A DNA stretch of 56,043 nt, from contig CAJBYM010000022.1 of the NCBI GenBank assembly GCA_903959815.1, forward strand, positions 1 to 56,043. Direction: 5' to 3'. Positions 3,846 to 45,933 of this stretch are shown here, piece by piece; within the stretch, counting starts at the first letter, position 1; each line of letters begins with the position of its first letter. Source of the stretch: Candidatus Omnitrophota bacterium. GTDB lineage: Bacteria; Omnitrophota; Gorgyraeia; Zapsychrales; Fredricksoniimonadaceae. Made by a program: the position numbers and the translations under genes. Below the pieces are notes generated by a model. The model made no database searches. It was not told where the DNA came from and was given only the letters and a program-made list of their open reading frames with translations.

Positions 3846-3865
3846 CGCGGATCTCCTTTATAAAA

Positions 3866-5584
3866 TTAAAACTTTTTAGAAACCTGCAAATATGTCACAA
3901 CCTTATCCCCGGTAGACGACTTGTCTCCGGCCACAGGAAGACCAAAATCAAGCTTGACGTTCAGGTCCCTGCCAAAATCAAATCTAAACCCAAAACCCGC
4001 ACCTGCAATATCAGAATGTTTACGCTCTCCGACCTGAGGCTTCTTTAAGTAAACTTTGCCATAATCATAAAAACCGACGATCCTCATGAAATCCTTGATC
4101 TCTTTCTTCACGAACGGAACTTTATAATCACCCAAAAACGGGACCGGAATATTCAACTCCGCGTTGAAGACCTCACCCGTATCACCCAAGTGTTCTGCCT
4201 GTGCGTACCCGCGAACTGTATCCGCGCCACCAATAGCGATCTGCTCAGAAACCGGTAAAGAATTATTTGCAGCCTGGACAGATCCTTTGAGCATCAACAT
4301 ACTGTTAAGCGGTAATTTTTGATAACGGGCAAACTCCAAATTACTCTTAATGAAGTTCCCGCCGACGCCCACACGCGACATGCCCAGATCATCATGCTTC
4401 GACCCGCCCATAAAATTCGAAAGGGCCTGGGAAGCGCTAAGAGCAAAATAATTCCTGCCCATAAAACGCGTATCTAAATTATTGCCTGTTAACCCGAGCT
4501 TAACGATCCTCAACTTATCTTCACTGCTAACGCTGCCCAAAAGATAATTCGTCGCCGTCTTATAATCAAAGCCAAGCGAAACATCCAAAGCTGATGTCAG
4601 AGTTCTTTGCAAAGGCTGCGCCACCAAAAAACTGATCATTTCTGAATCACCACGCGCGTTAAGCCGGCGAAATTCTCTTTGCACATCAAACTTTGACTTT
4701 GTATACGAAACCCCGACCTTAGTATCATACGCATTGATCGGCGTAGAATACCCAACACTCCCATACGTCAAAGCATTTAAAGAGATACCCGACACCCCAT
4801 TTAACGTAACCTTATCACCACCTAAAAACAAATTAGAATACTCCATTCCCAGGCCAAAATGTTCCCTGGAAACATAACGGGAACCATAATTGTCATAATT
4901 CGCCGTGAAATGCAAAGGACGCTTATCTTCAACTTTCAAGAGCACATCAACGGTGTAAGGCTCTTTACCCTTTTGCATAACCGCTTTTACACTAAGATCA
5001 GGATATTCGTTAAGAAGAATGAGCGCTTTAAAAAGACGGTGGTAATTAACAACACCGTTTGCGGAACAGGCGAAATGACCTTTAATAAAATTCGCTGTGT
5101 AAAATTTGCCGCCCTCAATGACCACTTCACCCAATTTCCCTTCAACAACAACAATATTAACCACGCCATTAGCAATATCTTGGGCCGGAAGAATGGCGCG
5201 CGTCAAAAAGAAACCCTTCTCTATATAATATTCATTGATCAAACGAAGGGCATCCTGCAGATCTTTGAAATGAACGGGCTTATGCACATACTTGGCCACA
5301 ACCTTCTTAAGCACAGAACTTTTAAAGATTGTATTGCCCGTAAATTCAAATGCACTGACCGTAATCTCTTTACCTTCATCTAAAAGAAGATCAGTCTTGG
5401 GATAATCCAATTCTTGAAAGATGTTCCTTTTTTCTGTTGTGGCTGGAATTGCTTCGGGCTGGGTAAGACTTCTTTCAACAACACCTGACTTTGCGCTGCC
5501 AGGGACTTCTTGTGCTAAAGCTAATGTTGTTATTGAGAACGCACAAAAGATCGCTACGAACAGAACTTTTGGTTTAAAGCCCAT
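3866..5584 (-). CDS. TpsB outer-membrane transporter (ShlB/FhaC/HecB family, POTRA + beta-barrel)
   Basis: 572-aa ORF with ATG at 5584 and a GGAGGT SD. Signal peptide MGFKPKVLFVAIFCAFSITTLALA. POTRA-type segment FEFTGNTIFKSSVLKKVVAKYVHKPVHFKDLQDALRLINEYYIEKGFFLTRAILPAQDIANGVVNIVVVEGKLGEVVIEG is typical of ShlB-type transporters. The C-terminus is beta-strand-like and ends in F. It lies immediately upstream of tpsA. Confidence 0.85.
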   Translation of the reverse strand: MGFKPKVLFVAIFCAFSITTLALAQEVPGSAKSGVVERSLTQPEAIPATTEKRNIFQELDYPKTDLLLDEGKEITVSAFEFTGNTIFKSSVLKKVVAKYVHKPVHFKDLQDALRLINEYYIEKGFFLTRAILPAQDIANGVVNIVVVEGKLGEVVIEGGKFYTANFIKGHFACSANGVVNYHRLFKALILLNEYPDLSVKAVMQKGKEPYTVDVLLKVEDKRPLHFTANYDNYGSRYVSREHFGLGMEYSNLFLGGDKVTLNGVSGISLNALTYGSVGYSTPINAYDTKVGVSYTKSKFDVQREFRRLNARGDSEMISFLVAQPLQRTLTSALDVSLGFDYKTATNYLLGSVSSEDKLRIVKLGLTGNNLDTRFMGRNYFALSASQALSNFMGGSKHDDLGMSRVGVGGNFIKSNLEFARYQKLPLNSMLMLKGSVQAANNSLPVSEQIAIGGADTVRGYAQAEHLGDTGEVFNAELNIPVPFLGDYKVPFVKKEIKDFMRIVGFYDYGKVYLKKPQVGERKHSDIAGAGFGFRFDFGRDLNVKLDFGLPVAGDKSSTGDKVVTYLQVSKKF

Positions 5585-7245: not shown

Positions 7246-8628
7246 TTAGAGCTTCTCGACATCCTTAAGAAGCTGCTTGCGATTAAGCCCGATGCGATTC
7301 ATGGCATCAGAAGAATCCAAACGGTACGCCCGGCAAAATGTGGTCACATCCTTGAGCGTATGAATACCACGGCTGTGAAGCTGTTTTAAGACAATAGCGC
7401 GCACGATCGTTTCGTTAATGATCTCACGCGGCGTCAACCCCGCCTCACGGGCCAATCTGTCACGGTAGATCGTGCTGGGCGACATCATGATCACGCGATT
7501 CTGCTCATAATTATACTTGTAAACCGGCGAAAGCAGGATCTTCTTCTGCTCCATCCCGCCTGTTTCACTGACTTCATCGACGACACGAAAAACCTTGTCT
7601 TCAATATGGAATCTTTTTAAAACAACGAACACATCAATAAGATTCACCAGCATCTCGGGAATATTCATCGGATCATTCTGAAGACGAATGATCGCCTCAC
7701 GCGACGTAAGGGCATGGATCGTACATATGCAATACTTACCCACATTCATGGCCGTGATCATATCACGCGCCTCAATGCCACGGACTTCACCGATGACAAT
7801 ACGCTCCGGGCGCATGCGCAAGCTATTTTTCACCAGATCAGCCAGCGAAAGCTCATCATCACTTTCCAAACGAGACACCGTATCCAACAAAAAGGTATTA
7901 AGCTCCAGCGTATCTTCAATGATAACCGTATGATCTTTTTCAGGAAAGAAACTAAAAAGAGCATTCAAAAGAGTTGTCTTCCCTGTTCCAGGACCACCCG
8001 CTAACATAATATTCGCAGGGCGAATGGACAACCCATCCACATAAACCCATAGCTGGGCCGCCACTTCATACGTCATACTACCACGGGCTACAAGATCCAA
8101 AATGCTAATAGGGTCAACCTTGGCCTTGGTGATCGTGATCTGAGCTCCGAAAGGCGATGTGATGATATTCGCACGTCCACCCAGATTGGAAAGCTCAAGG
8201 TCAATGATGCGGTTCATGCTGTCACGATTGGAGAAAACCAGAAGCTTCTTGATAAAGATATCGAGTTCGCGAATATGCTCAAATCTCTTGCCCGTATCAA
8301 CAAAGCCCTTCTCGCTGTGATGAATAAAAATAGGCTGCAACCCGTGGATCACAATATCTTCTACATCGCTGTCACACAAAAGCCCTTCGATGACACCATA
8401 AGAAAGAAATTCCCTGACAAAACTGGCCTTGCTCTCAGGCTTAGGAAATTCACTGTCAAAACGACGTGCCTTGTCATTGGCCAAGACGCTTTCCAAAGCA
8501 GCTGCAGCGATCTCCTCACGGTCATGGTCAGGTTGCAAGACCTGTAAACGACCTTTAAGCTTATCGAGCAGCTGATCTTCAAGTTCTAAACGGATATTTT
8601 TATTCATAACTGTAGGATAATTTAACAC
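7246..8628 (-). CDS. Type II/IV secretion-system family ATPase (CpaF/TadA/FlaI-like hexameric ATPase)
   Basis: Walker A GGPGTGKTTLLNAL, Walker B/Asp box TVIIEDTLEL, and ERIVIGEVRGIEARDMITAMNVG...CTIHA (His box). The track start at 8628 is GTG and an ATG lies at 8607; neither has a clear SD. Confidence 0.75.
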   Translation of the reverse strand: MLNYPTVMNKNIRLELEDQLLDKLKGRLQVLQPDHDREEIAAAALESVLANDKARRFDSEFPKPESKASFVREFLSYGVIEGLLCDSDVEDIVIHGLQPIFIHHSEKGFVDTGKRFEHIRELDIFIKKLLVFSNRDSMNRIIDLELSNLGGRANIITSPFGAQITITKAKVDPISILDLVARGSMTYEVAAQLWVYVDGLSIRPANIMLAGGPGTGKTTLLNALFSFFPEKDHTVIIEDTLELNTFLLDTVSRLESDDELSLADLVKNSLRMRPERIVIGEVRGIEARDMITAMNVGKYCICTIHALTSREAIIRLQNDPMNIPEMLVNLIDVFVVLKRFHIEDKVFRVVDEVSETGGMEQKKILLSPVYKYNYEQNRVIMMSPSTIYRDRLAREAGLTPREIINETIVRAIVLKQLHSRGIHTLKDVTTFCRAYRLDSSDAMNRIGLNRKQLLKDVEKL

Positions 8629-12967: not shown

Positions 12968-15766
12968 TCAATTCATGGCCGCTTCCTGCAAGAACGGCAA
13001 ACCTTCGAGCGACATGACAGAAATGATCTCGGGTGAAAATCCTTCTACGGCCTCAGGCGACATCTTCATGCCTTGCAAACCAAACTCTTGCCGTTGCCCC
13101 TTAAGGTCAAATGCACCATTAACATTCCGAACATCAATACCTCCTGTGATCTCAGACTTGTCGAATTCCCTCAAAACCTTAAGAACCAAACCCGTCGGCA
13201 ACTGATTCGCCGCTTGAACAATATCGCACATATAAATATAAGGTATCAAATATTTGTTCAAAGGTGAATTCTTGTCCCCGCCTTTATAATATTTGTGCTC
13301 CCAGTCATGCAAAAAAGCCTCGGTGGACTTAAACTGAACCTCTATGGTCCAAGCCCCATGGCCCAACATAAAAATAACATGCACGCCGTTATACCATTTA
13401 GGAGTTGATGTCTTTTTCTTTCTTTCCAAACTATAATAATTGATAACCCTGGCAACAATAGGCGCGTTGTTCTTAAAATTCTTTTTAATATCCTCGATTC
13501 GGGCCAAATCTCTTTGCAGTCGACCCTTTTCTTCCTGTTCTTCATCCGATAAACTTTCTCCAACAAGTCGTGCCAACTTCTTATTGATCTTTTGTTCAGC
13601 CGCTTGAAAATCACTCCAAAACTGCTTCAAAAATATGACCTGCTTCTTGGGATCAAGAAGGTCCTGCAATGACTTGAATAAATCCCTGGGATTATCATAA
13701 ATAAAACGCAGACCCAAGTAATCATAACCTTCCCTAGGATCAGGTGCCGGCTTTCCACTCCGCTGTGTATTAGAAAACTTCGCATTTAAACTCTCGGCAC
13801 CTTTGGGCCGACCCGCAATGATCTGCGGCTTTGTCCCCATAAGATCCTTCAAGCTTCTTGAAAAGTCATCGGATTTCTTTTGAAAAAGAACCTTGGATTC
13901 TTTGGCTATATTTATAGTCCATTGTTTCAACGAAACATTCGTAGGCACAATAAACTGCCCATCATTAGAGCGGCTATCGTTAATAATACCTGTATCATCC
14001 ATTTCATTGATCTGAGGAAATTTATTCAAATACTCAATTTCTTTCATTAACCGCAGAAAAAGCTCCTTATACTCTGCATCTGTCTTAAATTTCTTGACAA
14101 CAGAAGCCATTCTCGGGATCAACTCCGGATGAAGTTTTAGAATATACTCCCCCAGGATCTCTTGATAAGGAACGTCTTCATCTTTCGTACGCGACATCAT
14201 GGCCAAACCCCGCAAAATATCAAAGGTTTCCTGCGTGCGCGTACCACTCAGGATCTGTTTCTTTAATGCCGATTCTTCTTCGGGCTCATCCATAACATCA
14301 CCTGATGTTTCTGGACGCTTATCCAAAATATCTGCCAATGCTTTAACTAGGAGCTGCTTATGTTCTTCCCCATCCAAATAAAGGTCAAAAGCACCCTTAA
14401 CCTCCTTGACCATTCTTTCCTTATTGGCCTGAAGCAACGACCACTCACGGGATCCATAACTAAACTTTTTCTCCTCATCCTCAAAAATAATAAACGCAAG
14501 TTCCTTGATACTTTCCATCATCAATGCCATTCTTTCTTTACCTGGAAAATTATCACGTTTTATATCCGCAACAAACTCTGAAGGTGGTGCAAACTTATTC
14601 ACCTGCGGGTCAGGACCTCGCAAATCACCTTTTAGCTCAACATATTTCTTCTTCTTTCGCCCCTGCTTTTCTGAAGCATCCATAGAAGAACGCACCTTGA
14701 ACGTCTTCTCGGAGAAATCTTTGCCTATGCCGGTCGTAAACCCACCGGAAAGATATTTGCGCGGGATCGTCTCGCCGCTATAACGGTCAACTTCTTCTTT
14801 AATATAATTAAAAACCCCTTGGCGAAAGGCCTGAACATACTGATTGTAGATGCGCTGATTCTCAGCCACATCAGCCTGCTCTATACCTTTGACCTTACCC
14901 TGATCAACATAAGCCTTACCCAAAAAAGTCTCATGCATCGCCTTTTTATACCAAGTCGCAAGAATAAGCGCATTGTAAATCTGACGCAAGCGAGCGAAAT
15001 TCTTACCCTGATTCACTTCTTTCTCAAGAGCAGGAATGATGATCTGTCGCATCATGGACTTCGTTAATTCTTGCGTAGGGGCCGACCTTGTGTCGGCCCG
15101 TTCATGAGCTACAACATTATTGTCCATCGCGAGATAATCTGATTCCAGCATGACCTTCAGATGCGCTTTTAGGACCATGGCGCTCGTACCCTGCTGATAT
15201 ACCTCGGCAACATCAGGCATGATCCAGACTTTATTGAATGTATCCACCGGAATATCTGTAGTACCAAATTGATCCTGCGCCTGACGATAAACTTCTGCCC
15301 AGAAATCCTTACCAATCCCCTCTTCAGGATAAATGAGCGATGCCGTGATCTGTTTGAGCATATAATCCTGCGCCAAAAGATCACGCCCCATTTCCGTCAA
15401 GCCGAAACGATCATCAATGATGCGGTCTTTTTCATACGGAGAAAGGTTAACCCACAGCTGGTCTTCAGGAATCGTGAGAGAAACCATAAAATCTTTAACG
15501 AGCAGTAAATATTCATCTTTCCGGGCATCTCCTTGCGGCATCTGCCCCGGATCGACAAAAAACTGGAACTGCAAAGGATTTTCAGGATCAACGGTCAAGG
15601 CACTTAAGAGAGCTGGTTCAAAAGATGCGCTTAAAGCAACTTTATCTCCAGCAGGAGGCAGAAGAACAGCCTGGGCATGAACATACGCAGACGGAAAAGC
15701 TAATGCCAAAGCAAGGGCTCCGGCAATGAACCGCTTTAATATATTATTGTAAATACTGCAAATCAT
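12968..15766 (-). CDS. 932-aa signal-peptide protein: conserved N-terminal module, RelA/SpoT-type synthetase-like domain, conserved C-terminal module (paralogue of the 3,175-aa ORF)
   Basis: ATG at 15766. Signal peptide FIAGALALALAFPSAYVHA. Residues 32-345 align with the N-terminus of ORF 36406-45933. Residues ~645-830 carry GRPKGAESLNAK, DYLGLRFIY, WYNGVHVIF and IEVQFKSTEAFLHDWEHKYYKG in the RSH synthetase motif order. The last ~60 aa, GGIDVRNVNGAFDLKG...GFSPEIISVMSLEGLPFL, are shared with the giant ORF. Confidence 0.8.
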   Translation of the reverse strand: MICSIYNNILKRFIAGALALALAFPSAYVHAQAVLLPPAGDKVALSASFEPALLSALTVDPENPLQFQFFVDPGQMPQGDARKDEYLLLVKDFMVSLTIPEDQLWVNLSPYEKDRIIDDRFGLTEMGRDLLAQDYMLKQITASLIYPEEGIGKDFWAEVYRQAQDQFGTTDIPVDTFNKVWIMPDVAEVYQQGTSAMVLKAHLKVMLESDYLAMDNNVVAHERADTRSAPTQELTKSMMRQIIIPALEKEVNQGKNFARLRQIYNALILATWYKKAMHETFLGKAYVDQGKVKGIEQADVAENQRIYNQYVQAFRQGVFNYIKEEVDRYSGETIPRKYLSGGFTTGIGKDFSEKTFKVRSSMDASEKQGRKKKKYVELKGDLRGPDPQVNKFAPPSEFVADIKRDNFPGKERMALMMESIKELAFIIFEDEEKKFSYGSREWSLLQANKERMVKEVKGAFDLYLDGEEHKQLLVKALADILDKRPETSGDVMDEPEEESALKKQILSGTRTQETFDILRGLAMMSRTKDEDVPYQEILGEYILKLHPELIPRMASVVKKFKTDAEYKELFLRLMKEIEYLNKFPQINEMDDTGIINDSRSNDGQFIVPTNVSLKQWTINIAKESKVLFQKKSDDFSRSLKDLMGTKPQIIAGRPKGAESLNAKFSNTQRSGKPAPDPREGYDYLGLRFIYDNPRDLFKSLQDLLDPKKQVIFLKQFWSDFQAAEQKINKKLARLVGESLSDEEQEEKGRLQRDLARIEDIKKNFKNNAPIVARVINYYSLERKKKTSTPKWYNGVHVIFMLGHGAWTIEVQFKSTEAFLHDWEHKYYKGGDKNSPLNKYLIPYIYMCDIVQAANQLPTGLVLKVLREFDKSEITGGIDVRNVNGAFDLKGQRQEFGLQGMKMSPEAVEGFSPEIISVMSLEGLPFLQEAAMN

Positions 15767-19112: not shown

Positions 19113-19811
19113 TCAATATTTTCGAACACAACGAATATGCGCAAAAAGATCTGTCTTGCCCGTAGTGCCCTGACTGGCATTAGAGAAATACTGATACTCG
19201 GCGCCATAACCGCTCGTCTCCGTTGACGACCAGTAATAATACGTTGAAAACCCTTTGATCGCGTCCTTGTTGTTATAAAGGACATCGTTAACTTCTTTCT
19301 TGGCAGGTAGATACCAGTCGTTATACCCGCTATAAACCATATCCTGACAATATTTAGCCGCGTCCGTATCCGTATAAAAAGGAGACAGGGTTGTCAATTT
19401 ATTAGTGTTAAAAACGCCATCGGTCTCACTTGCCGCGCCTGTAACGACATTGTAAGCCGTTGTCCCTGAATTGTTGGCCCATTTCAATATTACAGTATCA
19501 TTATTAGCACCACCCGCACAAGTCGGATGGGTCAGATCCGCACCCGCGCACCCTCCGGGTGTGACCATATATTTATCCGTTGGAACAAGGTTCGCATAAT
19601 TCGTACCTCCATACAACGCCAGCGTACCATCGCACGCCTGTCCTATGGATTTCCCCGCGCAAGGATCAGTCACCAACGACGGAACAGCAATCTGCGCGCT
19701 GGATATCCTCGCGCCTGAAATGAAGGCCGCTTGTGCCGCATATGAAGCATCCATACATGCGAATAAAAAAAAAGGAAGAACAATAAATATCCGGCAAGTT
19801 TTAATAGCCAT
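19113..19811 (-). CDS. Secreted Cys-rich protein with DUF1566/Lcl-like C-terminal domain
   Basis: Signal peptide IFIVLPFFLFACMDASYA. The C-terminal YCQDMVYSGYNDWYLPAKKEVNDVLYNN...YYWSSTE...IRCVRKY resembles the DUF1566 fold family (from memory). It overlaps the pilD stop by 11 nt. Confidence 0.6.
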   Translation of the reverse strand: MAIKTCRIFIVLPFFLFACMDASYAAQAAFISGARISSAQIAVPSLVTDPCAGKSIGQACDGTLALYGGTNYANLVPTDKYMVTPGGCAGADLTHPTCAGGANNDTVILKWANNSGTTAYNVVTGAASETDGVFNTNKLTTLSPFYTDTDAAKYCQDMVYSGYNDWYLPAKKEVNDVLYNNKDAIKGFSTYYYWSSTETSGYGAEYQYFSNASQGTTGKTDLFAHIRCVRKY

Positions 19812-21003
19812 ACATCCCCATGACCCATCGGATGATCATATCACCCCAAAAAAGACTGGCAACAATACCGACAGCAAGAAATGGTCCGTAAGCAATCGCT
19901 GTATCCTGTCGACGTAAAACCTTGATCAGACCAAACACCGCTCCAATAAAAGGCGCAATAAAGAATGCCACCAGAGCCAACTGCCACCCTAAAAACGCAC
20001 CCGCCATGGCCAAGAATTTCACATCCCCCCAGCCCATGACCCCGCCCTGATCCACATCCTGCAGCATCGCAAAGATCTCCTGACGCTTATCCTCAAACAC
20101 AGGTTCAAGCTTTAGGCCTGCGGCCGTCTTCACATCACGCAACGCCGATTGAAGGCTCCCCTGAGCATCCACATAACCTGCCCCATGAAGGGCTTTCATC
20201 AGCGCCAAAGGATCATCCACCATACCTTTAAAATCAAATTCCGTCACAACACGTTTGGTGATCAAGACCTCTCCGATAAGCCCCGTGACCCAAAGGGAGC
20301 ACGCACCGATCACGGCACCCTGTAAAGCATCAGCAAGCGCCGCAAAAGACGTCGCGCAAGACGGGATGACACCTGCCAATGTCATCAATGACCATTGCAA
20401 TAACAAAAATGCCGTCCCCAAAAGAAGGATCTTCTTGTCTTCTCCATCAACGGGGATCTTAAAGCGAAATAACTTGAGCAGATGAAGCCCCATGCATGTG
20501 CCACCCAGAATAAAAGCGACCATGCTACCGACGATCAGCACTTCAGATGCCGGACCTTTATGAAGAGCAGGAATGAGCATGCTCAATAAGAAACCGACCC
20601 ACATCCCGCCCACACTAACCTCATCCGGAATGATACGCCACTCAAGATCCACAAACGATGCCACAACCAGAAGGCCGATGAGCACAAAAGCTGGAACCAA
20701 CACCCAGGAAAAACCAAACACGATATACGCAAAGAAGAATAAAGCCGCTGTTAAAAGTTCAACCACGAAATAATGCAACGGTATGCCTTTTTGACACGAG
20801 CGGCACCTGGCTTTTAGGGCCAAGAAACTGATCAAAGGAATGTTGTCATACCAATAGATCGGCGCCTGACACTGCGGGCAATGCGACGATGGAAAAACGA
20901 TCGATTCACTCTTGGGAAGACGGACAATGCACACATTAAGGAAACTGCCGATCAAAGCACCGAAAACAAAAAAGATAGTCCGCAAGAAGATCTCTATTTC
21001 CAT
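19801..21003 (-). CDS. pilD: Prepilin (type IV leader) peptidase, A24 family, with a large internal insertion
   Basis: N-terminal zinc knuckle CPQCQ...CRSCQ. First Asp region SFVDLEWRIIPDE and second Asp motif GWGDVKFLAMAGAFLG. 400 aa, compared with the usual ~250-290. Confidence 0.8.
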   Translation of the reverse strand: MEIEIFLRTIFFVFGALIGSFLNVCIVRLPKSESIVFPSSHCPQCQAPIYWYDNIPLISFLALKARCRSCQKGIPLHYFVVELLTAALFFFAYIVFGFSWVLVPAFVLIGLLVVASFVDLEWRIIPDEVSVGGMWVGFLLSMLIPALHKGPASEVLIVGSMVAFILGGTCMGLHLLKLFRFKIPVDGEDKKILLLGTAFLLLQWSLMTLAGVIPSCATSFAALADALQGAVIGACSLWVTGLIGEVLITKRVVTEFDFKGMVDDPLALMKALHGAGYVDAQGSLQSALRDVKTAAGLKLEPVFEDKRQEIFAMLQDVDQGGVMGWGDVKFLAMAGAFLGWQLALVAFFIAPFIGAVFGLIKVLRRQDTAIAYGPFLAVGIVASLFWGDMIIRWVMGMYGY

Positions 21004-36405: not shown

Positions 36406-39400
36406 CTACGGCAAGAGGAACAAACCGGGGTCCTCAAGCGGCTGGAAAGCTGTTATCCTGAAATCAAAACCCCGGAAAAGCTGAAGGAATTGCTGTGAAC
36501 TCTCGGGAGAGAAAATCTGAAGGCCAATATCGACAGGGGTAAGGATGCCCTTAAAATCAACGATGTCGGATACACCTGTAAGGTCAAGCCCGCCATTCTC
36601 CGGTAAGGCAGCGCTGTCAGGCTCTTCAGGCGCAGCAACCTCCTCGGATTTATCCAGCCCCGCCTGTTTCAGTTGCAAGCTGATATCCTCCATTTGATCC
36701 CGGAATTTGATATGCTCAACCTTGGCCGAACTATAGTTCGGCAGAATAGCGCCGGCTTCAATATCACCCCTGAAATCCTTTCTCGCTTCAAGAAAAAGAT
36801 CATAATACAACAAATACCGTTTGCGCGCCGCGTTCTGCTCATCGATCAGTTCCTTATGATCGAAACCGTTGTGCTCATAAACATCCGGCTGTGAGATCCT
36901 TTTCTCAAGATACGCCTTCAACAGCCGGTCCTCGGGCAATATCAAAGGATTGATGATATCATTAGTCATGTGCAAAAGCGGCAAACTGTTCCAAAGATCC
37001 GGATCCTGCTCAAGTTTATCAAGGACTTTCCCCAGGATGCTGACAGTCTTCGCGTTAAAGAACATGAGGCCGCTAAGCGCGGGGAACTGTTTCAATTTCT
37101 TACGCTTCAGATCAAAACGTGTATTCAGATAAATCAGCTCGTGATCGACGTACATCGGCTCACGGCCTTTGCGTTCAATATCAGAAACGATCATCTTCTC
37201 ATGGATCTCTGCAACGGCATTGGTCTGACCATCGGGGTCCATCTTCAGAAGACCAAGCGTCTCAAGCTCCTTTTCATTCACCCAGTCGGCCTGAACATTG
37301 ATATCCTTATCCGCCGTGAATTCTAGCATGGGACCGAAATACGCGTCGCGGCTGTAAACAGTGATCTGCCCGCCCTTCGAAAAAGGATCGTCCTTCTTCA
37401 GCTTGGCCGCCAAACGGTAACCGTTGATCAAAGCCCAGTCAAGGACCCTGTTGTCATGGAACTTATTCATACCATGAAAAACAAACATGGCCCGGACATC
37501 CTGCCACGGCTTACCGCGCAAGTGCGGATACCGGGCCAAAAAATCCGGGTCCTTCAGTTTTGTGCGCATGAACTGCAAGGCGCGCAGTTCGACATTGCCG
37601 CTCCCTTTTGCGCTCGGAGCAATTACCATCGGCACACTATCCCTGGTCATCACTCCCCTGCTGATATCCACATATTTATTAACCTCATCGACATAATCCA
37701 AATCTTCCGGGATAACGATGACCATGTCCACGCTGGGCGCCCCGCTGCCATTCACTTGTTCATTCAACGCAGCCTTGCCTTCGTCGACGGACCGCTTGAC
37801 CACTTTGTCCATCCCTTTGGCGCCATTGCCATTGGACGTCAAAGGATCACCATTCTTTTTATCAAAATTTTCATCAAGTTTATTATTGATAGCCTTCATA
37901 TCCTTGAGCCATTCCGGATGCGTGATGACATACTGCGCCCACCAGAACGACCCAAACTTGGCAATAGCCCCCAGAATAGTCATCACGATCAACCCATTGC
38001 CGAGCAAGGGCAGTCCGAGAAAACGGGCAAAGAATCCCAGCCCCAAAAATATCGGGGGGGCATAGAGGAAAAGACGGCCCCTCCACCTGCGCCACAGATC
38101 CGCCCGGGCCGCTGCAGCCGATGTCAGAGAATGCAGGGTCTCGGCTTCCGCTATCATATCCTCCAATATCTTTTTGCTCCTGCCCAGAAGATCTTCATCC
38201 TCGTTATAAATCCCCGGCATTAATTTGTTGCCCTTTATTCTGATCTCGGGGATGAGCTCATAGATCCTCTTGGTGGAAATGCCGATCTGATCGGTATATT
38301 TGATCCCATAACGCATAAAAGGATACACTTTGCTCTTTTCGATAAAATGATCATCCGACCCCTTATATCCCATCAGCTTGTCAACAGAGCCCCGGCTTTC
38401 AAAAAGTTCCAGGTAGTCTTCGAGGTACGTTTGCATGTCAAGCAAACGTGCCTTATCGTCAAAAAGCATTTCCGTCTGACGACTATCAAATCCTGAGTGG
38501 CTGTCCTGATAATGGTCAAGGGCATTGCGCAATTCGGTGATCGACAGATAAAGATGAAAGAACGTTTTCATGTACTTGCCGTTACGGATCTCGCCATCCT
38601 CCGACCCCCTGCCCATGAGCTCCGGCACGTAAGGCATGGAACGGATGACATGGTCATACTGGTTCAAGGCTTCATTAATGTCATGGATAACCCCTTGCGG
38701 ATCAACCCCCTCATCTTCGTTCCAGCTCTTAACAATATTTTGCACCTTGACCAGGCGCTTGCGCGCCGAATTATTGAAACCGTCCTCAGGAATGATCGTG
38801 AATGTCAGGCCAGCCGATGTGCCCAGAGCGCCGGGGATCAGGAACATTCTGGCAACCTTTTCTTTCCAGCTGGTTGTTTTGCGCTTGACGCGAATAACGT
38901 CCTTGCGCAAAGACACGACAAGGTCGTCAACCTTGCCATATTTTCTGAAAAATTTCTTCTGAACAAAGCCATGAGCAATGAAGGCCCCGGCCGCAAATAG
39001 CGCCCAAAAAGCGTACCAGATCGACGAAGGAGTGTTCGAGACATTCTGATCATTCTTCAAAATAGACTCTTCAAGGCTCTTCATTTTCTTTTCGATCTCT
39101 CTTTTCAGGGACTTCTGGGTCGAATTGACCGGATTGAAATCCTCGAAATGGGTGATGATCTTCATTGGATCGGTCTCACCGGCGATCTTGAGTCTCATAT
39201 CTTTAATGAGAGCCGTCTCTGCGGTCCCGAATTTGCTGTTGTTCCAGAAATCCAGTTGCGGGGTGTACTCGATGCGCGACTCGACCAAATCAAGGGCTAT
39301 GCCGATCGCCATGGCCTTGATCTGGGCCTTGACCATGTCCGCCCCGTTGGGACGGGGATCCGTGGCCGCATGCAATTCGCCGAAGGTAAAAGTCTTTAAA

Positions 39401-42400
39401 CGGATATTCAAAGGCCAATCCTGCCCGGTGCGTCCATACATCTTAATCATGCCCTCACGCAAGATACTCATGGACTCCGGATCAGGCATGGATTGAACAT
39501 CCGCCCGAAGCAGTGCTTCCCAAGTACGGCTTTCCACCAAAGACAACAGATCATTATCGCTGGAATGCACATACTCCCTCCAGGCCAGGATACGGCCGTC
39601 AGGTTTCTCCATCAGTTTATCCAATACCACACCTCTCTGGAATGTCGGAGAGGCAAGAATACGCGCCAGCTCAGAAAGCCCGGTCCCGTTAATATACTCT
39701 GTCTGGGCATCAGTTCCCAGGGCATCAAAATACGTCAGCATGTCCGTGCTCTCAAGGGACAGGTCCTTAAGCTCATACAACGGCGAGGCAGTCCCCTTAT
39801 TTTCAGGATCCCCGGAAGAGATCTCCCTGTCAGCCTCTTTCTCGGCCCCCCTGAGAAGATCCTTATCGACAAAGCCCTCCATGTCCCGGTTCTCGGGAGA
39901 AGCTGTGAAAAACCTCGTGTTCATGTCTTTAAAAATGTCGCGCATATGCGCGTCATAAATATCCCCTTCACTGACACCCAAACCGCCCAGATTTCTAAAT
40001 GCCCCTTTGTTAAAAAAGTCAGGAACGCTCTCCTCGAACTTACGCCGAATGAGCTCTTTTCTTATAATGGGCGCGAGCTTCGCCGCGGCAGGTTCTTTGG
40101 CGCCAAGAAGGTCATTGTGGATCCCGGCAAGCTGTCGCGTGGACCAGTAGTTACTTTGGAGAAACCGCTCTTTGCCGACCCAATCGTCAGGTGCGAAAGC
40201 AAGGAATGTCAGAAGCACGCGCCGGGCATCCTGGGGCGTCATCTTCATAAAATCAGCATCGCCGCCTTCCGAATAACTGGCTTCAGTCCAATGCCTGAGC
40301 ACGGTCGTATCCTGAATGAACAGATCATTCAAAGCCTGAAAACCCAGCCTGGCCAACGCCATATTGTTCTTGCTGATCGCTTGATCAATGGTATGAACAA
40401 AGAACCTGGGCTCGCTGCCATTCGTCTTGCTCATATTCATGAATAATCGCTGGACCACATCAGGGAACGGAGAATTCAGGACAGCTTTTTGTGCGACAAC
40501 CATGAATTTTCCGTCGTTCTGTCGCTCTTTCATGAAAAAATCCAAGGTCTGCGTGCGCGTGATAATATTAGGATCATGCATTAGGATATCGAGGAGCACA
40601 TCATATTCATCCTGTCCCTGATTTTGGCCACCCGCCATCATGGCCCACATGACCGCCGAACTAATTGTCTTGGGTGAAGAAGAATAATTCACATGGCCTG
40701 CGGACATACCGCTCACCTGCCCCGATGATACCGGTTGTGTCGACGATCCCTGCACGACTGCCGGCGCTGAATATGTCACAGAAAGGGCTGCCATACCGGT
40801 AATCGGAGGGGCAGCATGGAACCCAGTCCCGAAAGAAGAACTTGAAGAAGCTAGCGGCGAACTTCCGTACTTGAATGCAGATGCCGACGGCCCCCCGTAC
40901 CCGGGATTTACGGCATCTTGGACGGCCTCGACAACATCCTGCCCGATCGAAGAGCTTTGTACGGACGCCAATACGCGCGTCGTGCCGTAATCAAGAAGCT
41001 GCATCTGCGTCAACCGGGACTCCGCCTTGAAGTATTTAGCTTTAAGGTCATAAAGCGCCTGGGCGGTTCTTGCGATCTCCTCACGAGCGGCAACCTGTTC
41101 ATAAGGCGAGTAGAGGTCAGGCCGGGACGCCATGTTCTTCCAACTCTTGATGGCCTTAAGGTAGTCCTCATTCCCTTCCTTGATCTGCTGGCTCAAGCTA
41201 TTGATACTCGCCGCGACCTGCGTCAATTCTGATCCAACCTCGGCTCGGATGCGCTGCTGATCATTGACAAACTTGTTCATATTGATCGGCCCAATGTCCT
41301 TTAGCGCCTGATTTTTGGAATTATAAATGGGAATATTCACATTGACCGCACCGTTCGCTCCCGACTGGGAAGCGCTCGTCTTATAGGTGGAACCGGAATA
41401 CGGATCAACAGCCGTATTGCTGATATCCTGAGTTAAAAAAAGCCCATTCACATTGACCTCCGGAAGCGCGCCGAGCTTGTTAAGCTTGATTGTCATGGCC
41501 ATGCCCTCGATCATGGCCTTGGCCTCCTTAAGCTTGAAATTCGGGGTCTTATCACCCAACAAGGTTGAGCTCAAGGCATCCAGCTCGCTTTGCGACATGC
41601 CCGGAAAGTCCCCGTTCCAGGGGAACTCAGGCGAGAACTTCGTGCCAGATTCAAGCCCATGATAAAAATTCGCTTCAAACGTCCAGGCAACAAGGTCATC
41701 TTGCCATTTACTCAGATTGTTGCGCGAGGCCTTGATCTTCGCATGGAGCGCGTCTTTTTCAGCCGTAACAACATTCCCGACCTTTTCATTGGCTTCGACA
41801 ACCGCCAGAGCTTTATTAAGATCATTCAACAAGGCCTGAAGATGGTCAATATGCCACTGAGCATTGCCGACTTGGATATCCAGGTCTTGCGCGTGCTGAA
41901 TATTCCGGCTGACCAGATCTCCCATCACATATGTGAGCGCCTCGGTCTTCTTGACCTGAAGAGCCTTGAGCTTTTGCGGCTCCCCGGTGATGACCTTCAC
42001 AAGCTCTCCGACAAGAGTGGAAACGATCGGGGAAAGCGCCCCATAAATATTGCCCGTCGTTAGCCCACCCTGTATCCCGTTGAACACAAGTCCCAGCCCA
42101 CCGCTCACGCCCAGTTTGCCGTTATTGGAAACAATGCCGAATTTCAGATTAAAGCTCGAAGGGTTGGCAAACTTCTCCTTGGCGCGGCTTTCCTGGACCT
42201 CAAGCTCGGCCTTGCCGTTGATCAGAAAATTATTGGCCGTCCGCGTCGAAAGTTCTTTCATGCTGACTACCTGGCCTTTTGGCAATGAGAGCACGTCGAA
42301 GGAAACCGACACAGGCGCCGCGTTCTTCAAAGGAAGCAGGGGCATGCTGGTCGGCATGATCACTGCGTTGGCAAACTGTTGCTGTGTCGAGACCCTGATC

Positions 42401-45400
42401 TGCGCCGTGCCGCCACCCGAGCGCCCCCCATTCACCGCTGGCTCTGCTCCATAACTCACAGACCTCGCCGCGCTATTGAACATGGCCAACACAAGGTCCT
42501 TGTCCTCATCCGTGGGCACGATCACTTTGACCGGCAGGTTCGGCTGAAGGACATTGTTGATATCTTCCGCTAGGATCTCGACCGTCTGGACACCACTTAG
42601 CCTCATGGTCTGGCCCATGGGCATGGTGTTGACATTCTTGACCCTCGCCGGCACATACTCTCCCCAGGGAGTCATAAGAACGATAGGATCATTGAACTGA
42701 AGACTGATATTGTCAGGCAACTGGATCGTATTATTCATGTCGTAAAGACTGCCCAGCGGGACCTCACTGGGCTTGATGCGCAGCATCTCATCGGCAAATG
42801 CAAAAGAAGAAACGCTCATCGCTGAAATTGACGTCACGATGCCATTAGCAGGCGCCGTGACTCGCGTGCGGCGGACCTGTTTCCTGAGCGCTTTAAGTTT
42901 TGCCCCTAAAGCAGCAGCTTTTTCCTCAAGCTCATCCATCTGGTCATTAGAAAAATGCTGGACACCATCCCGAGGGGCAGACATCTCAAGCTGGGACTTG
43001 ACCGCTTCATAAGCCTTAAGCGTGCTTTTGTACTCTTCCGACGCGGAGCCTTCCACAATGACCATAAGCTGGCCTTTCTTTACCGTCTGGCCCAGCTTGA
43101 CAAAATACTGCGCAGTGCCATCCACCGGAGAAGGAACCAGGAGTTCTGCCGACGCAGGAACGCTTGAGATCGCCCAACCCTTCGCGTTGATGACAGGCGC
43201 ATTGGCCGAGAGCACCGGCGGCAGTATCTCAAGGTTCAAATGCGCATTCCTCGAATTTGAAATGGGCGCGGAGGGCTCGACAAGAAAGGTCACCCGCGCG
43301 AGATTATGCGTGGGATCAGGGTCTACGGCCACGTTAAGGATCCGCCTGACCTGCTGGCCGTCGATCTCAAACCTTCCGAAATATCCGAAAAACGCCTTAT
43401 TATAGGGCATCTCAACCGTCAGCCGCACCCTATCCTGGTCAATATATTCGAACATCTCCGTCCCCTTCTTGACAGGAGTGTTGTTGTAGATCCTCATATT
43501 CTTGATAAGCAAACGGGACGGCGCTCTGACCGTAAAAAGACGACGTTGATTGTCGAGCCGGGCTTTGACCTGGTTGCGCTGGGCCACCTGCCCCTCGACG
43601 GCACGAACTTTTACGGCTGGCATATTCCCGTTAGCGTTCAATTCCAGGGATCTATTCAATTTCGCGCCGCTGATCTTTAACAACTCATCATTCGTCTCGC
43701 TTTGCTCCAGGACATCATCTTCCTCAATGTTGAACATGACCGCGCCGCTCTGGTATCCATTTGCTCCCCGGTTCAGCCCCGAAACATAACCGGTCGTCTG
43801 GGCCACCATCGTCCTCTCATCGGGAACAAGCCCGACCTGTTTCGAGATGGTAAATGTTCCGGACGTTGACGAAAACGATGATGCCGTCGTTGAAGACTGC
43901 TTGACCATCACCGGGGCCGAAACCGGTGCAACAGTTTTTACCGGAGCAACATACGGGCTTGAAACAACCTTCTTCGGTGGCGGAAGAGGTGGCCGCGGAG
44001 GCCCCCCCGAACCTGATACCGCACTTTCAACAGTATTAGACGCCGCCATGGTTATCGTTACAGGCTTAGATTTTACGAAATCTTTGTTCACAACAGACAC
44101 CGGTCTTACAAGGGACGGCGATTTCACGCCCATCGATGTTTTAACTTCTTTCGCCTTGGATACTGACGAATTCTTCTCAACAGAAGGCACCTTGACCTTA
44201 ACATCTGATTTCGCCGCCGCAGACGTCGTCTTCACAACAGCCGTCCCGGTCATCAACGACCCCAATGCTCCGCGTGTCTGAGGCCCTATGTCCCCATCCT
44301 CAACAATCCCCATTTTATGCTGAGCAACAATAACGATCGCCTCCTGCATCCACCCCATCGTAGATGAAGAAAAGATCTTGTCCCAATTGCGCTCAATGGC
44401 ATCAGCATCAAAATCATAGGCTTGTCCCGTCAAAGGATTCTCTTTTCCCTGAATATCCCTGACATCATCGATGGTCAGAAAACCATTCATAAATGAAAAA
44501 TATTTTTGATCCTCTTCAAGGATAGGATCTCCTCGACTAATGATCTTCCGCGACACATCCTCAAGAGAGATCACATTCCGGGGACCTCCATTATTTTGCG
44601 CCACCTGCACCATATGGGTGGAATCAACAGGAACATGGAATGCCCCTTGCCCAGCGCCCTGAATCCCAAGACCTGACATGGAAGAAAGAAAAAGCCCTCC
44701 GGCAAAAGCCAACCCCAAAAGGCTTTTCCTGGACATCCCCCGGGGAACCAAAGAAACTGTAAAACGAAAAATATTCTTACCAAAACGATTCATTAAAGAA
44801 ACAAGCTCCGGCCTTGTCAAGGACCAGACAGGCATGATCTCGGTCCGCTCCGCCGCATCCTCGAAAGAAAATCCCCCTGAGAAATAATGGCGCGGAACGA
44901 CCTCCTGTTGATCCGTGTCATAATCCTCACGGATGATATCGTAAACCCCTTTTTTCAACGCCACCATATACTGGGCATAAATCTTTTGGGCGATCTCTTT
45001 GTCTTGTATTTGAATGCCAGATGTTTTCTTTTTATTGCTGTATATTTGATTAACAATGTGCTTCTGAAGCTTCTTCTTAAACCAGATCGCAAGGACCAAG
45101 GAATTGAACATTTGACGCAATTGTGAGAAATAATGACCCTCATTAACTTCCCGCTCAAGCTCAGGAATGATGATGTCGCGTGCGATCATCAGATATAACC
45201 CCGTAATCTCCTTTTCCGCATGTACAGAGACTTTATCCTCAGCAGCCGTCTTTTTAAGAGTCAAATAATCCTGATCAAGCAAAACCTTCAATCGGCTTTC
45301 AGCAATAAAAGCCATGCCCTTTTGCTCATAAACAACAGCTTTCTGTGGAACCACCCACACCTTGCTGAATGTGTCGAGCGGAAGATCAACCTCACCGTAT

Positions 45401-45933
45401 TTATTTCTGATCTTGGAACGCACCTGTTCCCAAAAAGATTTCCCCGGCTCCACATCGGGAAAGGTCATCGACGCCGCCATCTGTTTCAAGAGATAATCCT
45501 GCCTGAGCAGATCCTCACCGACAGCGGTGCCGCCCAAAACCGGATTAACAATACGATCCGGCTCGGAAGGAGAAAGATTGACCCAAAGATCTTTTTCCGG
45601 AATGGTCAAAAAAGCGAGAAAATATTTGATCAGGCGCTGTGACCCTTCTTCATTAAAGTTCGGATGTTCTCCCGCATCAACGAGAAAATCGATCTTCAGC
45701 GGATCAATCGGATCAATGGATATCGCTTTCAGAAGAGGGCATGCAGCCGTGGATGATGCAGACAATAAAACGCCAGGAGGAGGATCCATAATAATGCTTT
45801 GCGCATAAGCATCCTTAACACGCAAAAGATCAATCCCGATAGTGTTGCCGGTATAGATCACCAGTAGCGCACAACACACAAAACGGAAGGAGCGTGACCA
45901 TCCTGAATTTCTCTGCTGCATCAATGAATACAT
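36406..45933 (-). CDS. Giant (3,175-aa) signal-peptide multidomain envelope protein: shared N-module, PG-binding-like motif, two MFP(HlyD)-like units, TolC-like coiled coils, TM helices, unknown domains, shared C-module
   Basis: An uninterrupted 9.5-kb ORF with ATG at 45933 and signal peptide CCALLVIYTGNTIGIDLLRVKDAYA. Supporting motifs: GIVEDGDIGPQTRGALGSL; VKLGQTVKKGQLMVIVEGS ... coiled coil ... RVTAPANGIVTSI; and LGALPEVNVNGLF / NVNIPIYNSKNQ / YEQVAAREEIARTAQALYDLKAKYFKAESRL. Hydrophobic helices at aa 2305-2324 and 2620-2670. All long plus-strand ORFs inside it are low-complexity shadows. Confidence 0.85.
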   Translation of the reverse strand: MYSLMQQRNSGWSRSFRFVCCALLVIYTGNTIGIDLLRVKDAYAQSIIMDPPPGVLLSASSTAACPLLKAISIDPIDPLKIDFLVDAGEHPNFNEEGSQRLIKYFLAFLTIPEKDLWVNLSPSEPDRIVNPVLGGTAVGEDLLRQDYLLKQMAASMTFPDVEPGKSFWEQVRSKIRNKYGEVDLPLDTFSKVWVVPQKAVVYEQKGMAFIAESRLKVLLDQDYLTLKKTAAEDKVSVHAEKEITGLYLMIARDIIIPELEREVNEGHYFSQLRQMFNSLVLAIWFKKKLQKHIVNQIYSNKKKTSGIQIQDKEIAQKIYAQYMVALKKGVYDIIREDYDTDQQEVVPRHYFSGGFSFEDAAERTEIMPVWSLTRPELVSLMNRFGKNIFRFTVSLVPRGMSRKSLLGLAFAGGLFLSSMSGLGIQGAGQGAFHVPVDSTHMVQVAQNNGGPRNVISLEDVSRKIISRGDPILEEDQKYFSFMNGFLTIDDVRDIQGKENPLTGQAYDFDADAIERNWDKIFSSSTMGWMQEAIVIVAQHKMGIVEDGDIGPQTRGALGSLMTGTAVVKTTSAAAKSDVKVKVPSVEKNSSVSKAKEVKTSMGVKSPSLVRPVSVVNKDFVKSKPVTITMAASNTVESAVSGSGGPPRPPLPPPKKVVSSPYVAPVKTVAPVSAPVMVKQSSTTASSFSSTSGTFTISKQVGLVPDERTMVAQTTGYVSGLNRGANGYQSGAVMFNIEEDDVLEQSETNDELLKISGAKLNRSLELNANGNMPAVKVRAVEGQVAQRNQVKARLDNQRRLFTVRAPSRLLIKNMRIYNNTPVKKGTEMFEYIDQDRVRLTVEMPYNKAFFGYFGRFEIDGQQVRRILNVAVDPDPTHNLARVTFLVEPSAPISNSRNAHLNLEILPPVLSANAPVINAKGWAISSVPASAELLVPSPVDGTAQYFVKLGQTVKKGQLMVIVEGSASEEYKSTLKAYEAVKSQLEMSAPRDGVQHFSNDQMDELEEKAAALGAKLKALRKQVRRTRVTAPANGIVTSISAMSVSSFAFADEMLRIKPSEVPLGSLYDMNNTIQLPDNISLQFNDPIVLMTPWGEYVPARVKNVNTMPMGQTMRLSGVQTVEILAEDINNVLQPNLPVKVIVPTDEDKDLVLAMFNSAARSVSYGAEPAVNGGRSGGGTAQIRVSTQQQFANAVIMPTSMPLLPLKNAAPVSVSFDVLSLPKGQVVSMKELSTRTANNFLINGKAELEVQESRAKEKFANPSSFNLKFGIVSNNGKLGVSGGLGLVFNGIQGGLTTGNIYGALSPIVSTLVGELVKVITGEPQKLKALQVKKTEALTYVMGDLVSRNIQHAQDLDIQVGNAQWHIDHLQALLNDLNKALAVVEANEKVGNVVTAEKDALHAKIKASRNNLSKWQDDLVAWTFEANFYHGLESGTKFSPEFPWNGDFPGMSQSELDALSSTLLGDKTPNFKLKEAKAMIEGMAMTIKLNKLGALPEVNVNGLFLTQDISNTAVDPYSGSTYKTSASQSGANGAVNVNIPIYNSKNQALKDIGPINMNKFVNDQQRIRAEVGSELTQVAASINSLSQQIKEGNEDYLKAIKSWKNMASRPDLYSPYEQVAAREEIARTAQALYDLKAKYFKAESRLTQMQLLDYGTTRVLASVQSSSIGQDVVEAVQDAVNPGYGGPSASAFKYGSSPLASSSSSFGTGFHAAPPITGMAALSVTYSAPAVVQGSSTQPVSSGQVSGMSAGHVNYSSSPKTISSAVMWAMMAGGQNQGQDEYDVLLDILMHDPNIITRTQTLDFFMKERQNDGKFMVVAQKAVLNSPFPDVVQRLFMNMSKTNGSEPRFFVHTIDQAISKNNMALARLGFQALNDLFIQDTTVLRHWTEASYSEGGDADFMKMTPQDARRVLLTFLAFAPDDWVGKERFLQSNYWSTRQLAGIHNDLLGAKEPAAAKLAPIIRKELIRRKFEESVPDFFNKGAFRNLGGLGVSEGDIYDAHMRDIFKDMNTRFFTASPENRDMEGFVDKDLLRGAEKEADREISSGDPENKGTASPLYELKDLSLESTDMLTYFDALGTDAQTEYINGTGLSELARILASPTFQRGVVLDKLMEKPDGRILAWREYVHSSDNDLLSLVESRTWEALLRADVQSMPDPESMSILREGMIKMYGRTGQDWPLNIRLKTFTFGELHAATDPRPNGADMVKAQIKAMAIGIALDLVESRIEYTPQLDFWNNSKFGTAETALIKDMRLKIAGETDPMKIITHFEDFNPVNSTQKSLKREIEKKMKSLEESILKNDQNVSNTPSSIWYAFWALFAAGAFIAHGFVQKKFFRKYGKVDDLVVSLRKDVIRVKRKTTSWKEKVARMFLIPGALGTSAGLTFTIIPEDGFNNSARKRLVKVQNIVKSWNEDEGVDPQGVIHDINEALNQYDHVIRSMPYVPELMGRGSEDGEIRNGKYMKTFFHLYLSITELRNALDHYQDSHSGFDSRQTEMLFDDKARLLDMQTYLEDYLELFESRGSVDKLMGYKGSDDHFIEKSKVYPFMRYGIKYTDQIGISTKRIYELIPEIRIKGNKLMPGIYNEDEDLLGRSKKILEDMIAEAETLHSLTSAAAARADLWRRWRGRLFLYAPPIFLGLGFFARFLGLPLLGNGLIVMTILGAIAKFGSFWWAQYVITHPEWLKDMKAINNKLDENFDKKNGDPLTSNGNGAKGMDKVVKRSVDEGKAALNEQVNGSGAPSVDMVIVIPEDLDYVDEVNKYVDISRGVMTRDSVPMVIAPSAKGSGNVELRALQFMRTKLKDPDFLARYPHLRGKPWQDVRAMFVFHGMNKFHDNRVLDWALINGYRLAAKLKKDDPFSKGGQITVYSRDAYFGPMLEFTADKDINVQADWVNEKELETLGLLKMDPDGQTNAVAEIHEKMIVSDIERKGREPMYVDHELIYLNTRFDLKRKKLKQFPALSGLMFFNAKTVSILGKVLDKLEQDPDLWNSLPLLHMTNDIINPLILPEDRLLKAYLEKRISQPDVYEHNGFDHKELIDEQNAARKRYLLYYDLFLEARKDFRGDIEAGAILPNYSSAKVEHIKFRDQMEDISLQLKQAGLDKSEEVAAPEEPDSAALPENGGLDLTGVSDIVDFKGILTPVDIGLQIFSPESSQQFLQLFRGFDFRITAFQPLEDPGLFLLP

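Follow-up and report, generated by a model that had tools for sequence, protein, structure and literature searches.

Type I secretion system (T1SS) substrates have no Sec signal, keep an uncleaved C-terminal signal, which GGxGxDxUx (RTX) repeats usually precede, and are encoded next to an operon for an ATP-binding cassette (ABC) protein, a membrane fusion protein and an outer-membrane protein. LapA-type proteins also have no Sec signal peptide and contain RTX repeats, combining an N-terminal retention module and a LapG site with a C-terminal secretion signal. PEP-CTERM, LPXTG and GlyGly-CTERM signals consist of a short signature motif, a transmembrane (TM) helix and a basic cluster at the very end of the protein. 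The C-terminal domain (CTD) of type IX secretion system (T9SS) cargo is an autonomous Ig-like beta-sandwich of 70-100 amino acids (aa) (PMC11285876, PMC4804311). The element described here is a conserved C-terminal module of about 60 aa, the tail, found on two proteins encoded in a 56,043-nt stretch of Candidatus Omnitrophota DNA (contig CAJBYM010000022.1 of assembly GCA_903959815.1), which as a whole is called the window: a 932-aa protein and a giant of 3175 aa. Judging from its sequence, the tail is most likely a targeting or docking tag. Both proteins belong to a very large, putatively exported and apparently undescribed family of Omnitrophota, whose members are built of a signal peptide, a conserved N-terminal module (N-module) of ~330 residues, a D-x-A-M motif, a cargo region, a second D-x-A-M motif, the tail and 0-49 variable residues.

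An earlier note on this DNA had described the shared end of the two proteins as GG(I/L)D...GFxxxI...LExxxxFL. The two-box module is real, and its formula is refined family-wide to G-G-I-D (box 1), ~33 aa, and G-[FL]-x-P-x-I-x-x-I-x-P followed by L-P-x-[FL]-L (box 2). G-G-x-D and the box 2 glycine are invariant, I, P, I and P are near-invariant, and a typical tail reads GGID(L/F)N..LxLQIKRDGxGVPLP..QQD.....IxGFxPVIIxIxP...LPxFLG, with its GGID 55-91 residues from the end. The 932-aa protein, used as query, gave more than 3,800 matches, the named ones being Candidatus Omnitrophica/Omnitrophota, and these homologues are alike in the N-module but wholly divergent after it. Of the best 120 N-module homologues, about 100 finish with a GGID tail, and those without it appear truncated. 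When a profile of 55 tails was run against 1.84 billion cluster representatives, 6,501 proteins matched at E<=1e-3 and 3,285 at E<=1e-10. Conserved termini around unrelated middles, which the earlier note had seen in two proteins, are thus a property of thousands, and the uncultivated lineages to which it attributed similar hypothetical proteins turn out to be Candidatus Omnitrophota. Mean identity across the family is 56% for the N-module, 32% for the tail and 10% for the cargo. A viral origin was rejected, as only three matches were found among 2.9 million viral contigs, and so was the idea that the tail arose by duplication from within the N-module (hhalign probability 0.2%).

The coordinates and sequences previously quoted for the two window tails are exact, with GGID beginning at residue 875 of the 932-aa protein and GGLD at residue 3114 of the giant. 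That these two ends resemble each other by chance, or that the motif is an ordinary internal repeat, might be argued from the tail segment of the whole-protein BLASTP comparison, which is weak alone (E=1.1), and from the divergence of the giant's tail, which reaches 7.6 bits against an independent tail hidden Markov model (HMM). Nevertheless, the tails alone gave z=4.8 (p~0.001) in a shuffle test, and the pattern GG[ILVMF]D[ILVMFT] occurs at two sites only in all six frames of the window, 58 and 62 codons ahead of the stop codons of the two paralogues. The independent HMM, made of 92 tails with the window protein and its ten orthologues left out, found the 932-aa tail at E=1.2e-6 as the sole match among the window's 948 six-frame open reading frames (ORFs). 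Among 5.8 billion proteins, the last 475 aa of the giant have a single homologue, P0121, which is 41% identical, retains GGIDL and a nearly unchanged QFLQLFRGFDFRI[ST]AFQPLEDP..FLG, and is nearly identical to the giant over the last ~25 residues. A two-tail profile of the giant and P0121 could be aligned from one end to the other with 53 further tails (hhalign E=4e-6, probability 87%), and thirty column-shuffled controls all stayed at or below 2.5%. Therefore, despite their marginal pairwise similarity, both window tails are genuine family members by the family-level profiles, the 932-aa tail being typical of its orthologue group and that of the giant an outlier, and the chance explanation is refuted.

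The tail is also strictly C-terminal, which tells against an ordinary repeat. In the best 142 cluster representatives that could be retrieved, 0-63 residues (median 9) follow the match; in 69 genomic genes, the distance from its end to the stop codon is 0-49 aa (median 7). Internal copies were seen in two of the 142 representatives, comprise box 1 only, and come in addition to the protein's own terminal tail. Of the two outcomes the earlier note had set against itself, non-significance and internal repetition, neither was observed. These copies, of the form D-x-A-M..GGIDLxPxxxxLQT, occupy residues 714-741 of P0165 and 617-638 of P0167, and a partial internal duplication is suggested because they are nearly identical to box 1 of the proteins' own tails.

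The N-module accompanies the tail, a pairing that the earlier note had marked for a check. Among representatives of at least 450 aa, 25 of 64 seemed to be without an N-module, and the four that were inspected all proved to be split genes, with the N-module in the ORF directly upstream (frameshift or in-frame stop). A genomic sample of the best 80 loci from species-representative genomes, found by N-module alignment (at least 588 matches overall), contained 79 N-module ORFs with complete 3' ends, and a tail is present in 77 of them: in the same ORF in 69 cases, in an adjoining ORF, owing to a split, in six, and in a divergent form in two, the remaining two N-module ORFs lying at contig ends. 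Conversely, no ORF in the 80 loci has a complete 5' end and a tail but no N-module, unless it lies beside an N-module ORF or at a locus or contig edge. Splits between N-module and tail were located at L001:2739-2741, L002:3109-3172, L004:909-952 and L005:6719-6798 and 7592-7594, further split family genes occur in loci L021, L049, L062, L067, L079 and L080, and two of the splits recur across independently listed assemblies (L002/L003 and L005/L006). The split genes may result from errors of assembly or may be pseudogenes of a family with fast turnover; stop-codon recoding was rejected, the in-frame stops being TAA, TGA, TGA and TAG and thus showing no consistent recoding.

Of these 80 loci, 57 are labelled Omnitrophota or Omnitrophica, 22 'uncultured Planctomycetales' (third-party assemblies) and one 'bacterium'. 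The N-modules of the Planctomycetales-labelled loci (including L007, L012, L014, L017 and L019) are 47-58% identical, as close as those of Omnitrophota-labelled metagenome-assembled genomes, so either the label is a placeholder or the family reaches another lineage of the Planctomycetota-Verrucomicrobiota-Chlamydiota group. Same-strand tandems of two or three N-module genes are present in 20 of the 80 loci (within L007-L086), all 23 adjacent pairs being co-oriented, and at several loci the tail ORF stops just ahead of the next N-module.

At the opposite end of the protein, 105 of 112 members with complete N-termini begin with a basic stretch, then a hydrophobic core, then a c-region resembling (S/G)YAQ or AxA, as expected of Sec-type signal peptides; these were called by heuristic inspection and not by a trained predictor, and the cleavage sites are accordingly putative. 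In the 932-aa protein the predicted signal peptide has a basic (K/R) n-region, the core FIAGALALALAF and the c-region AYVHA|QA, while that of the giant is less canonical, with hydrophobic residues 19-37 followed by AYA|Q. The N-module carries the signatures WVNLSPYEKDRI, GRDLLAQDYxLKQ and ...RKYFSGG and is the most conserved part of the protein, with 57-80% identity among orthologues. The N-modules of the two window proteins are 39% identical over 327 aa (BLASTP E=2e-74), and an HMM built without the window protein recovers them at E=6e-167 (932-aa protein) and E=4e-124 (giant). AlphaFold2 predicts a mixed alpha/beta fold for the 932-aa N-module, with a predicted local distance difference test (pLDDT) score of mostly ~90. 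Between the two conserved ends, the cargo measures from 170 to ~2,900 aa and is never absent (minimum ~170-214 aa). It often contains domains of types usual in the cytoplasm: receiver (REC), HATPase_c, RelA/SpoT, NUDIX and DnaJ domains (the last together with an M3 peptidase), EPSP synthase, PrmA, methyltransferase, PP2C and glycogen synthase. Within the orthologue group of the 932-aa protein, the tail is 33-61% identical, versus 20-29% for the cargo.

The earlier note had proposed a signal of T1SS, T9SS or PEP-CTERM type, and none of these assignments held. In NCBIfam, no C-terminal sorting model matched four family members at E<=0.1; in Pfam, nothing matched four isolated tails at E<=10. More broadly, neither the N-module nor the tail has a relative in Pfam-A (2025 copy), NCBIfam r20, the PDB profiles or a Foldseek comparison with the PDB, and no description of the family or its motif was found in the literature open to searching, which covered giant proteins, lifestyle and genomes of Omnitrophota but no subscription journals. 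The family is like T9SS CTD cargo in joining a Sec signal peptide to a conserved extreme C-terminal module on unrelated domains, and in that its members are scattered in the genome, apart from the machinery. On the other hand, no CTD model of NCBIfam or Pfam matched; the tail has only ~60 aa and is extended, without strands, when predicted alone; and T9SS cargo has no obligatory conserved N-terminal domain and belongs to a different phylum (Bacteroidota).

A T1SS substrate is disfavoured because a Sec-type signal peptide is present; furthermore, GGID occurs once, RTX repeats are missing and no export operon adjoins. The giant adhesins of the LapA type are similar in that conserved elements lie at both ends of a big variable protein and a linear motif past the N-terminal module may be a release site, and the HlyD-like and TolC-like segments of the window's giant recall the LapA-type T1SS setting. 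Unlike LapA, however, the family has signal peptides and a single GGID instead of GGxGxD repeats, and no sequence similarity was detected. The PEP-CTERM, LPXTG and GlyGly-CTERM signals read by sortases, exosortases and rhombosortases were rejected, since NCBIfam gave no match and the TM helix and basic cluster are missing: GG is followed by ~33 hydrophilic residues, box 2 contains three prolines and charged residues, and the ends are variable and non-basic. A classical (type Va) autotransporter was discarded as well, the conserved module having ~60 aa against a barrel of at least 250 aa, with no autotransporter match in Pfam. As in TpsA proteins and polymorphic toxins, a conserved N-terminal module of ~250-330 aa, required for handling in those systems, precedes highly variable regions, in large paralogous and often tandem families. 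The TpsA two-partner secretion (TPS) domain, however, is a beta-helix with NPNL/NPNG motifs, whereas the N-module is mixed alpha/beta without them, and in the present family the variable part is central and the C-terminus conserved; TpsA was thus rejected, the TpsB of the window having its own TpsA adjoining. Finally, encapsulin cargo-loading peptides and chaperone-usher donor strands are, like the tail, short terminal peptides that are extended alone, and they become ordered on a partner; yet encapsulins are cytoplasmic, pilins use N-terminal extensions, and the motifs are unrelated.

The explanation that we favour, with a probability of roughly 40%, is that the tail is an extended recognition peptide and forms, together with the N-module, a bipartite address that routes Sec-exported cargo proteins to a post-Sec destination. 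The protein would pass the inner membrane via Sec, after which the tail would act as an extended recognition peptide and not as a self-folding domain. Its boxes GGID(L/F)N and GFxPVIIxIxP..LPxFLG would be read by a candidate envelope component that sets the post-Sec fate of the cargo, be it outer-membrane passage or attachment, or possibly delivery to another cell, and the N-module would serve as carrier or retention partner. What we infer from the sequences is that the signal peptide is cleaved, the protein exported and its tail recognised in trans, and likewise any step of delivery. An address is suggested by the strict terminal position of the tail, by its presence on thousands of unrelated cargoes and by its conservation above that of the cargo, and the widespread Sec-type signal peptides imply that a post-Sec routing step is needed. 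Moreover, cargo of cytoplasmic type makes little sense in the periplasm, and it would be in keeping with the proposal that Omnitrophota live as predators or depend on hosts (PMC10066038; bioRxiv 10.1101/2023.11.21.568195). When predicted alone, the tail is an extended chain with no compact fold and no strands (predicted template modelling score, pTM, 0.27), and an unfolded state is typical of linear signals. As a variable extension follows box 2, the free C-terminus itself would not be what is read. A sorting signal, as suggested in the earlier note, is in this sense plausible for the tail.

Several observations weigh against such an address. An obligatory N-module of ~330 aa is unlike known C-terminal signals and atypical of simple signal-bearing substrates. 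The window neighbours of both family genes are housekeeping genes (rpsB-tsf-pyrH-frr, pstB/phoU, dprA), with no transporter, sortase or protease, and clustering of the 1,784 ORFs flanking the 80 loci (+/-10 kb) gave no specific recurrent neighbour; the two recurrent families, response-regulator receivers (13 loci) and ABC ATPases (7 loci), are generic. The co-occurring transporter or sortase-like gene that the earlier note had envisaged is therefore co-located neither in the window nor at these loci. Export and cleavage of the family members are themselves deduced from sequence. In addition, AlphaFold2 gives the tail higher confidence and beta-strands only inside the full-length protein, so docking within the protein fits at least as well as recognition by a machine.

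Docking on the N-module is indeed the main rival of the address, and we regard it as a serious if somewhat unlikely alternative. The tail would then be a docking strand for the N-module and not a transport signal. Binding could occur in cis, the tail being a clasp by which the protein is looped and the cargo becomes an insertion. It could also occur in trans, with the tail filling a groove in the N-module of another member, as in chaperone-usher donor-strand complementation, which would give a mixed head-to-tail surface assembly. The occurrence of both modules together in essentially every complete gene, with neither tail-only nor N-module-only genes found, would be explained by docking, as would the conservation of both ends across paralogues around unrelated middles, which is expected because any tail would have to fit any N-module. 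The isolated tail has no fold and gains strands in the full-length model (residues 876-878 and 886-891), where its pLDDT reaches 87-92, although this is a modest rise over the isolated tail (+5 to +25 for each block of 10 residues). The fact that a separate machine is not genetically linked in the neighbourhoods examined points the same way; against docking, cargo-less members were not found, whereas a pure structural unit might also occur alone. Mutual information with average product correction, computed over the small sample of 179 non-redundant N-module/tail pairs, placed no pair above the permutation null.

The motif D-x-A-[MQ], which may be a processing or docking site, occurs 214 times in the cargo regions, versus 20.8 expected from shuffles, an enrichment of ~10-fold. 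It lies within 60 aa past ...RKYFSGG in 57 of 94 proteins and within 20 aa ahead of GGID in 39 of them, D-x-A alone being found at the latter place in 59 of 94. In an unbiased 4-mer scan of 164 cargo regions DAAM came top (33-fold), followed by DSAM (22-fold) and then D[RKE]AM. A second linker motif, (A/S)SSPV, often recurs several times between the domains of a single protein (P0165 residues 690-790, L001, L022), SSPV being ~9-fold enriched.

On such data, the tail could be a maturation element, cut off at the Gly-Gly of box 1 and/or at D-x-A-M protease sites so that the cargo is freed from the N-module and the tail, much as C39 peptidases cut double-glycine leaders or LapG releases LapA. Double-glycine leaders carry a hydrophobic -4/-7/-12 pattern upstream of GG, and the residues upstream of the tail's GG are unlike this consensus. 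The enrichment of D-x-A-[MQ], clustered after the N-module and before GGID, and the invariance of GG would agree with processing, as would the C39 peptidase domains that are reported to be common in Omnitrophota giant proteins (bioRxiv 10.1101/2023.11.21.568195; 10.64898/2026.06.07.730766). Nevertheless, the two window proteins have degenerate D-x-A motifs only (in the giant, FEDAAE right behind the N-module, at ~44830-44847, and PDSAAL; in the 932-aa protein, MDASE past the N-module, and DKSE), and Cys, His and Ser are all absent from the invariant residues of the N-module, which leaves none for a self-processing protease. Maturation of this kind is, in our judgement, improbable.

More improbable still is a membrane or envelope anchor, in which the hydrophobic, Pro-containing box 2 (GFxPVIIxIxPVxxLPLLLGL) would sit in or on the outer membrane. 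Box 2 does exceed the Kyte-Doolittle 19-residue threshold of 1.6 in 19 of 103 members, but both window tails fall short of it, a basic cluster after box 2 is missing, and the three near-invariant prolines and frequent charged residues argue that box 2 is no TM helix. The address, docking, processing and anchor explanations are not mutually exclusive.

Omnitrophota are abundant, uncultured, ultra-small bacteria that are suspected predators or parasites. The family is among their largest, with thousands of distinct proteins, several per genome and often in tandem, and in it many kinds of enzyme and signalling domain are combined with a Sec signal and with conserved modules at both ends. It is conceivable, albeit rather unlikely, that a protein-handling system common to the Omnitrophota, and not recognised before, has the N-module and the GGID tail as its two halves. 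It would be either a new post-Sec secretion or delivery route (with a bipartite signal and D-x-A-M processing) or a head-to-tail docking system that links a variety of enzyme cargoes in a modular assembly at the surface. In either form, such a system would be the main vehicle by which these bacteria present cytoplasm-type enzymes, among them RelA/SpoT-like, receiver, kinase and NUDIX types, to other cells or deliver them there. Modular exported proteins with conserved address or docking modules at their ends are known in kind, and it is a real possibility that the underlying system is itself new. If the ends are an address or docking system, a simple sequence rule would delimit the candidate effector or surface proteome of the phylum, an envelope machine not yet known would be implied, and Pfam and NCBI would gain two new domain models with which thousands of 'hypothetical proteins' could be annotated. 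Should the tail do no more than complete the fold of the N-module, the family would still be striking as a conserved scaffold in which insertions of up to ~2,900 aa are tolerated.

The features of the two window proteins are collected in Table 1. The 932-aa protein has ten full-length orthologues (37-46% identity), several of them with PF04607; this family scores E=0.002, below threshold, against the 932-aa cargo and is precomputed for orthologues P0002/3/5/6/7/10. The top Foldseek match of this cargo, which is non-significant, is the toxic small alarmone synthetase FaRel2, and a RelA/SpoT-like, FaRel2-like cargo behind a signal peptide hints at an effector- or toxin-like activity. In the giant, residues ~400-2700 contain a hydrophobic segment directly after the N-module, a peptidoglycan-binding-like DGDIGPQTRGAL motif, a Pro-rich linker, HlyD/membrane-fusion-like and TolC/outer-membrane efflux protein (OEP)-like segments and three to four more TM-like stretches. 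The HlyD-like segment matched Pfam HlyD_D23, HlyD_3 and Biotin_lipoyl weakly, as well as the NCBIfam models RND_mfp (E=3e-5) and type_I_hlyD (E=4e-4), both far under the curated cut-offs. Overall, the cargo of the giant looks like a fused envelope-spanning assembly, every domain match being weak.

Table 1. Features of the two family members and of secretion-related genes in the window.
Feature	Positions	Strand	Basis or remarks
932-aa family member gene	12968-15766	minus	ORF and translation; signal peptide, N-module, RelA/SpoT-like cargo, tail
Sec-type signal peptide of 932-aa protein, residues 1-33	15668-15766	minus	By inspection; cleavage putative
N-module of 932-aa protein, residues ~34-345 (final residues ...IPRKYLSGG)	14732-15667	minus	BLASTP, HMM
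RelA/SpoT-like nucleotide pyrophosphokinase cargo of 932-aa protein (...TIEVQFKS..FLHDWEH)	13157-13699	minus	PF04607, sub-threshold
Tail of 932-aa protein, residues 875-932	12971-13144	minus	Independent tail profile, E=1.2e-6
Box 1 of 932-aa tail, GGID	13133-13144	minus	
Box 2 of 932-aa tail, GFSPEIISVMSLEGLPFL	12989-13042	minus	
Giant (3175-aa) family member gene	36406-45933	minus	Signal-peptide-like N-terminus, N-module, multi-domain cargo, divergent tail
N-module of giant, residues 39-362	44848-45819	minus	HMM E=4e-124; BLASTP E=2e-74 vs 932-aa protein
HlyD/membrane-fusion-protein-like cargo segment of giant, residues ~801-1059	42757-43533	minus	Weak matches
TolC-like OEP segment of giant, residues 1465-1602	41128-41541	minus	PF02321 E=7e-5, 23.1 bits (cut-off 22)
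Onset of final cargo domain of giant, weakly nucleotidyltransferase (CofC)-like	37534-37791	minus	PF01983 E=0.003-0.02, sub-threshold
D-S-A-A, degenerate D-x-A-[MQ] copy five residues before GGLD of giant	36607-36618	minus	Sequence
Tail of giant, residues 3114-3175	36409-36594	minus	hhalign vs 53 other tails
Box 1 of giant tail, GGLD	36583-36594	minus	
Box 2 of giant tail, GFDFRITAFQPLEDPGLFL	36415-36471	minus	
TpsB, ShlB/FhaC type (POTRA_2 plus ShlB)	3866-5584	minus	
Large TpsA, truncated by the window edge	1-3857	minus	Signal peptide and TPS motif VNPNGIFFGPG
Type II/IV secretion-family ATPase (T2SSE)	7246-8628	minus	
Prepilin peptidase (A24)	19801-21003	minus	
Small exported Lcl_C protein	19113-19811	minus	

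Elsewhere in the window, the TpsA and TpsB genes form a classical pair for two-partner secretion, with no relation to the tail family. The T2SSE, A24 and Lcl_C genes encode parts of the type II secretion/type IV pilus machinery, which is conserved in Omnitrophota according to the literature, and they have no established link to the tail family. The long ORFs of the window lie almost all on the minus strand. In each 2-kb bin the GC skew is below zero (-0.07 to -0.23), and the cumulative skew is monotonic; these features place the window within one replichore with strongly co-oriented genes.

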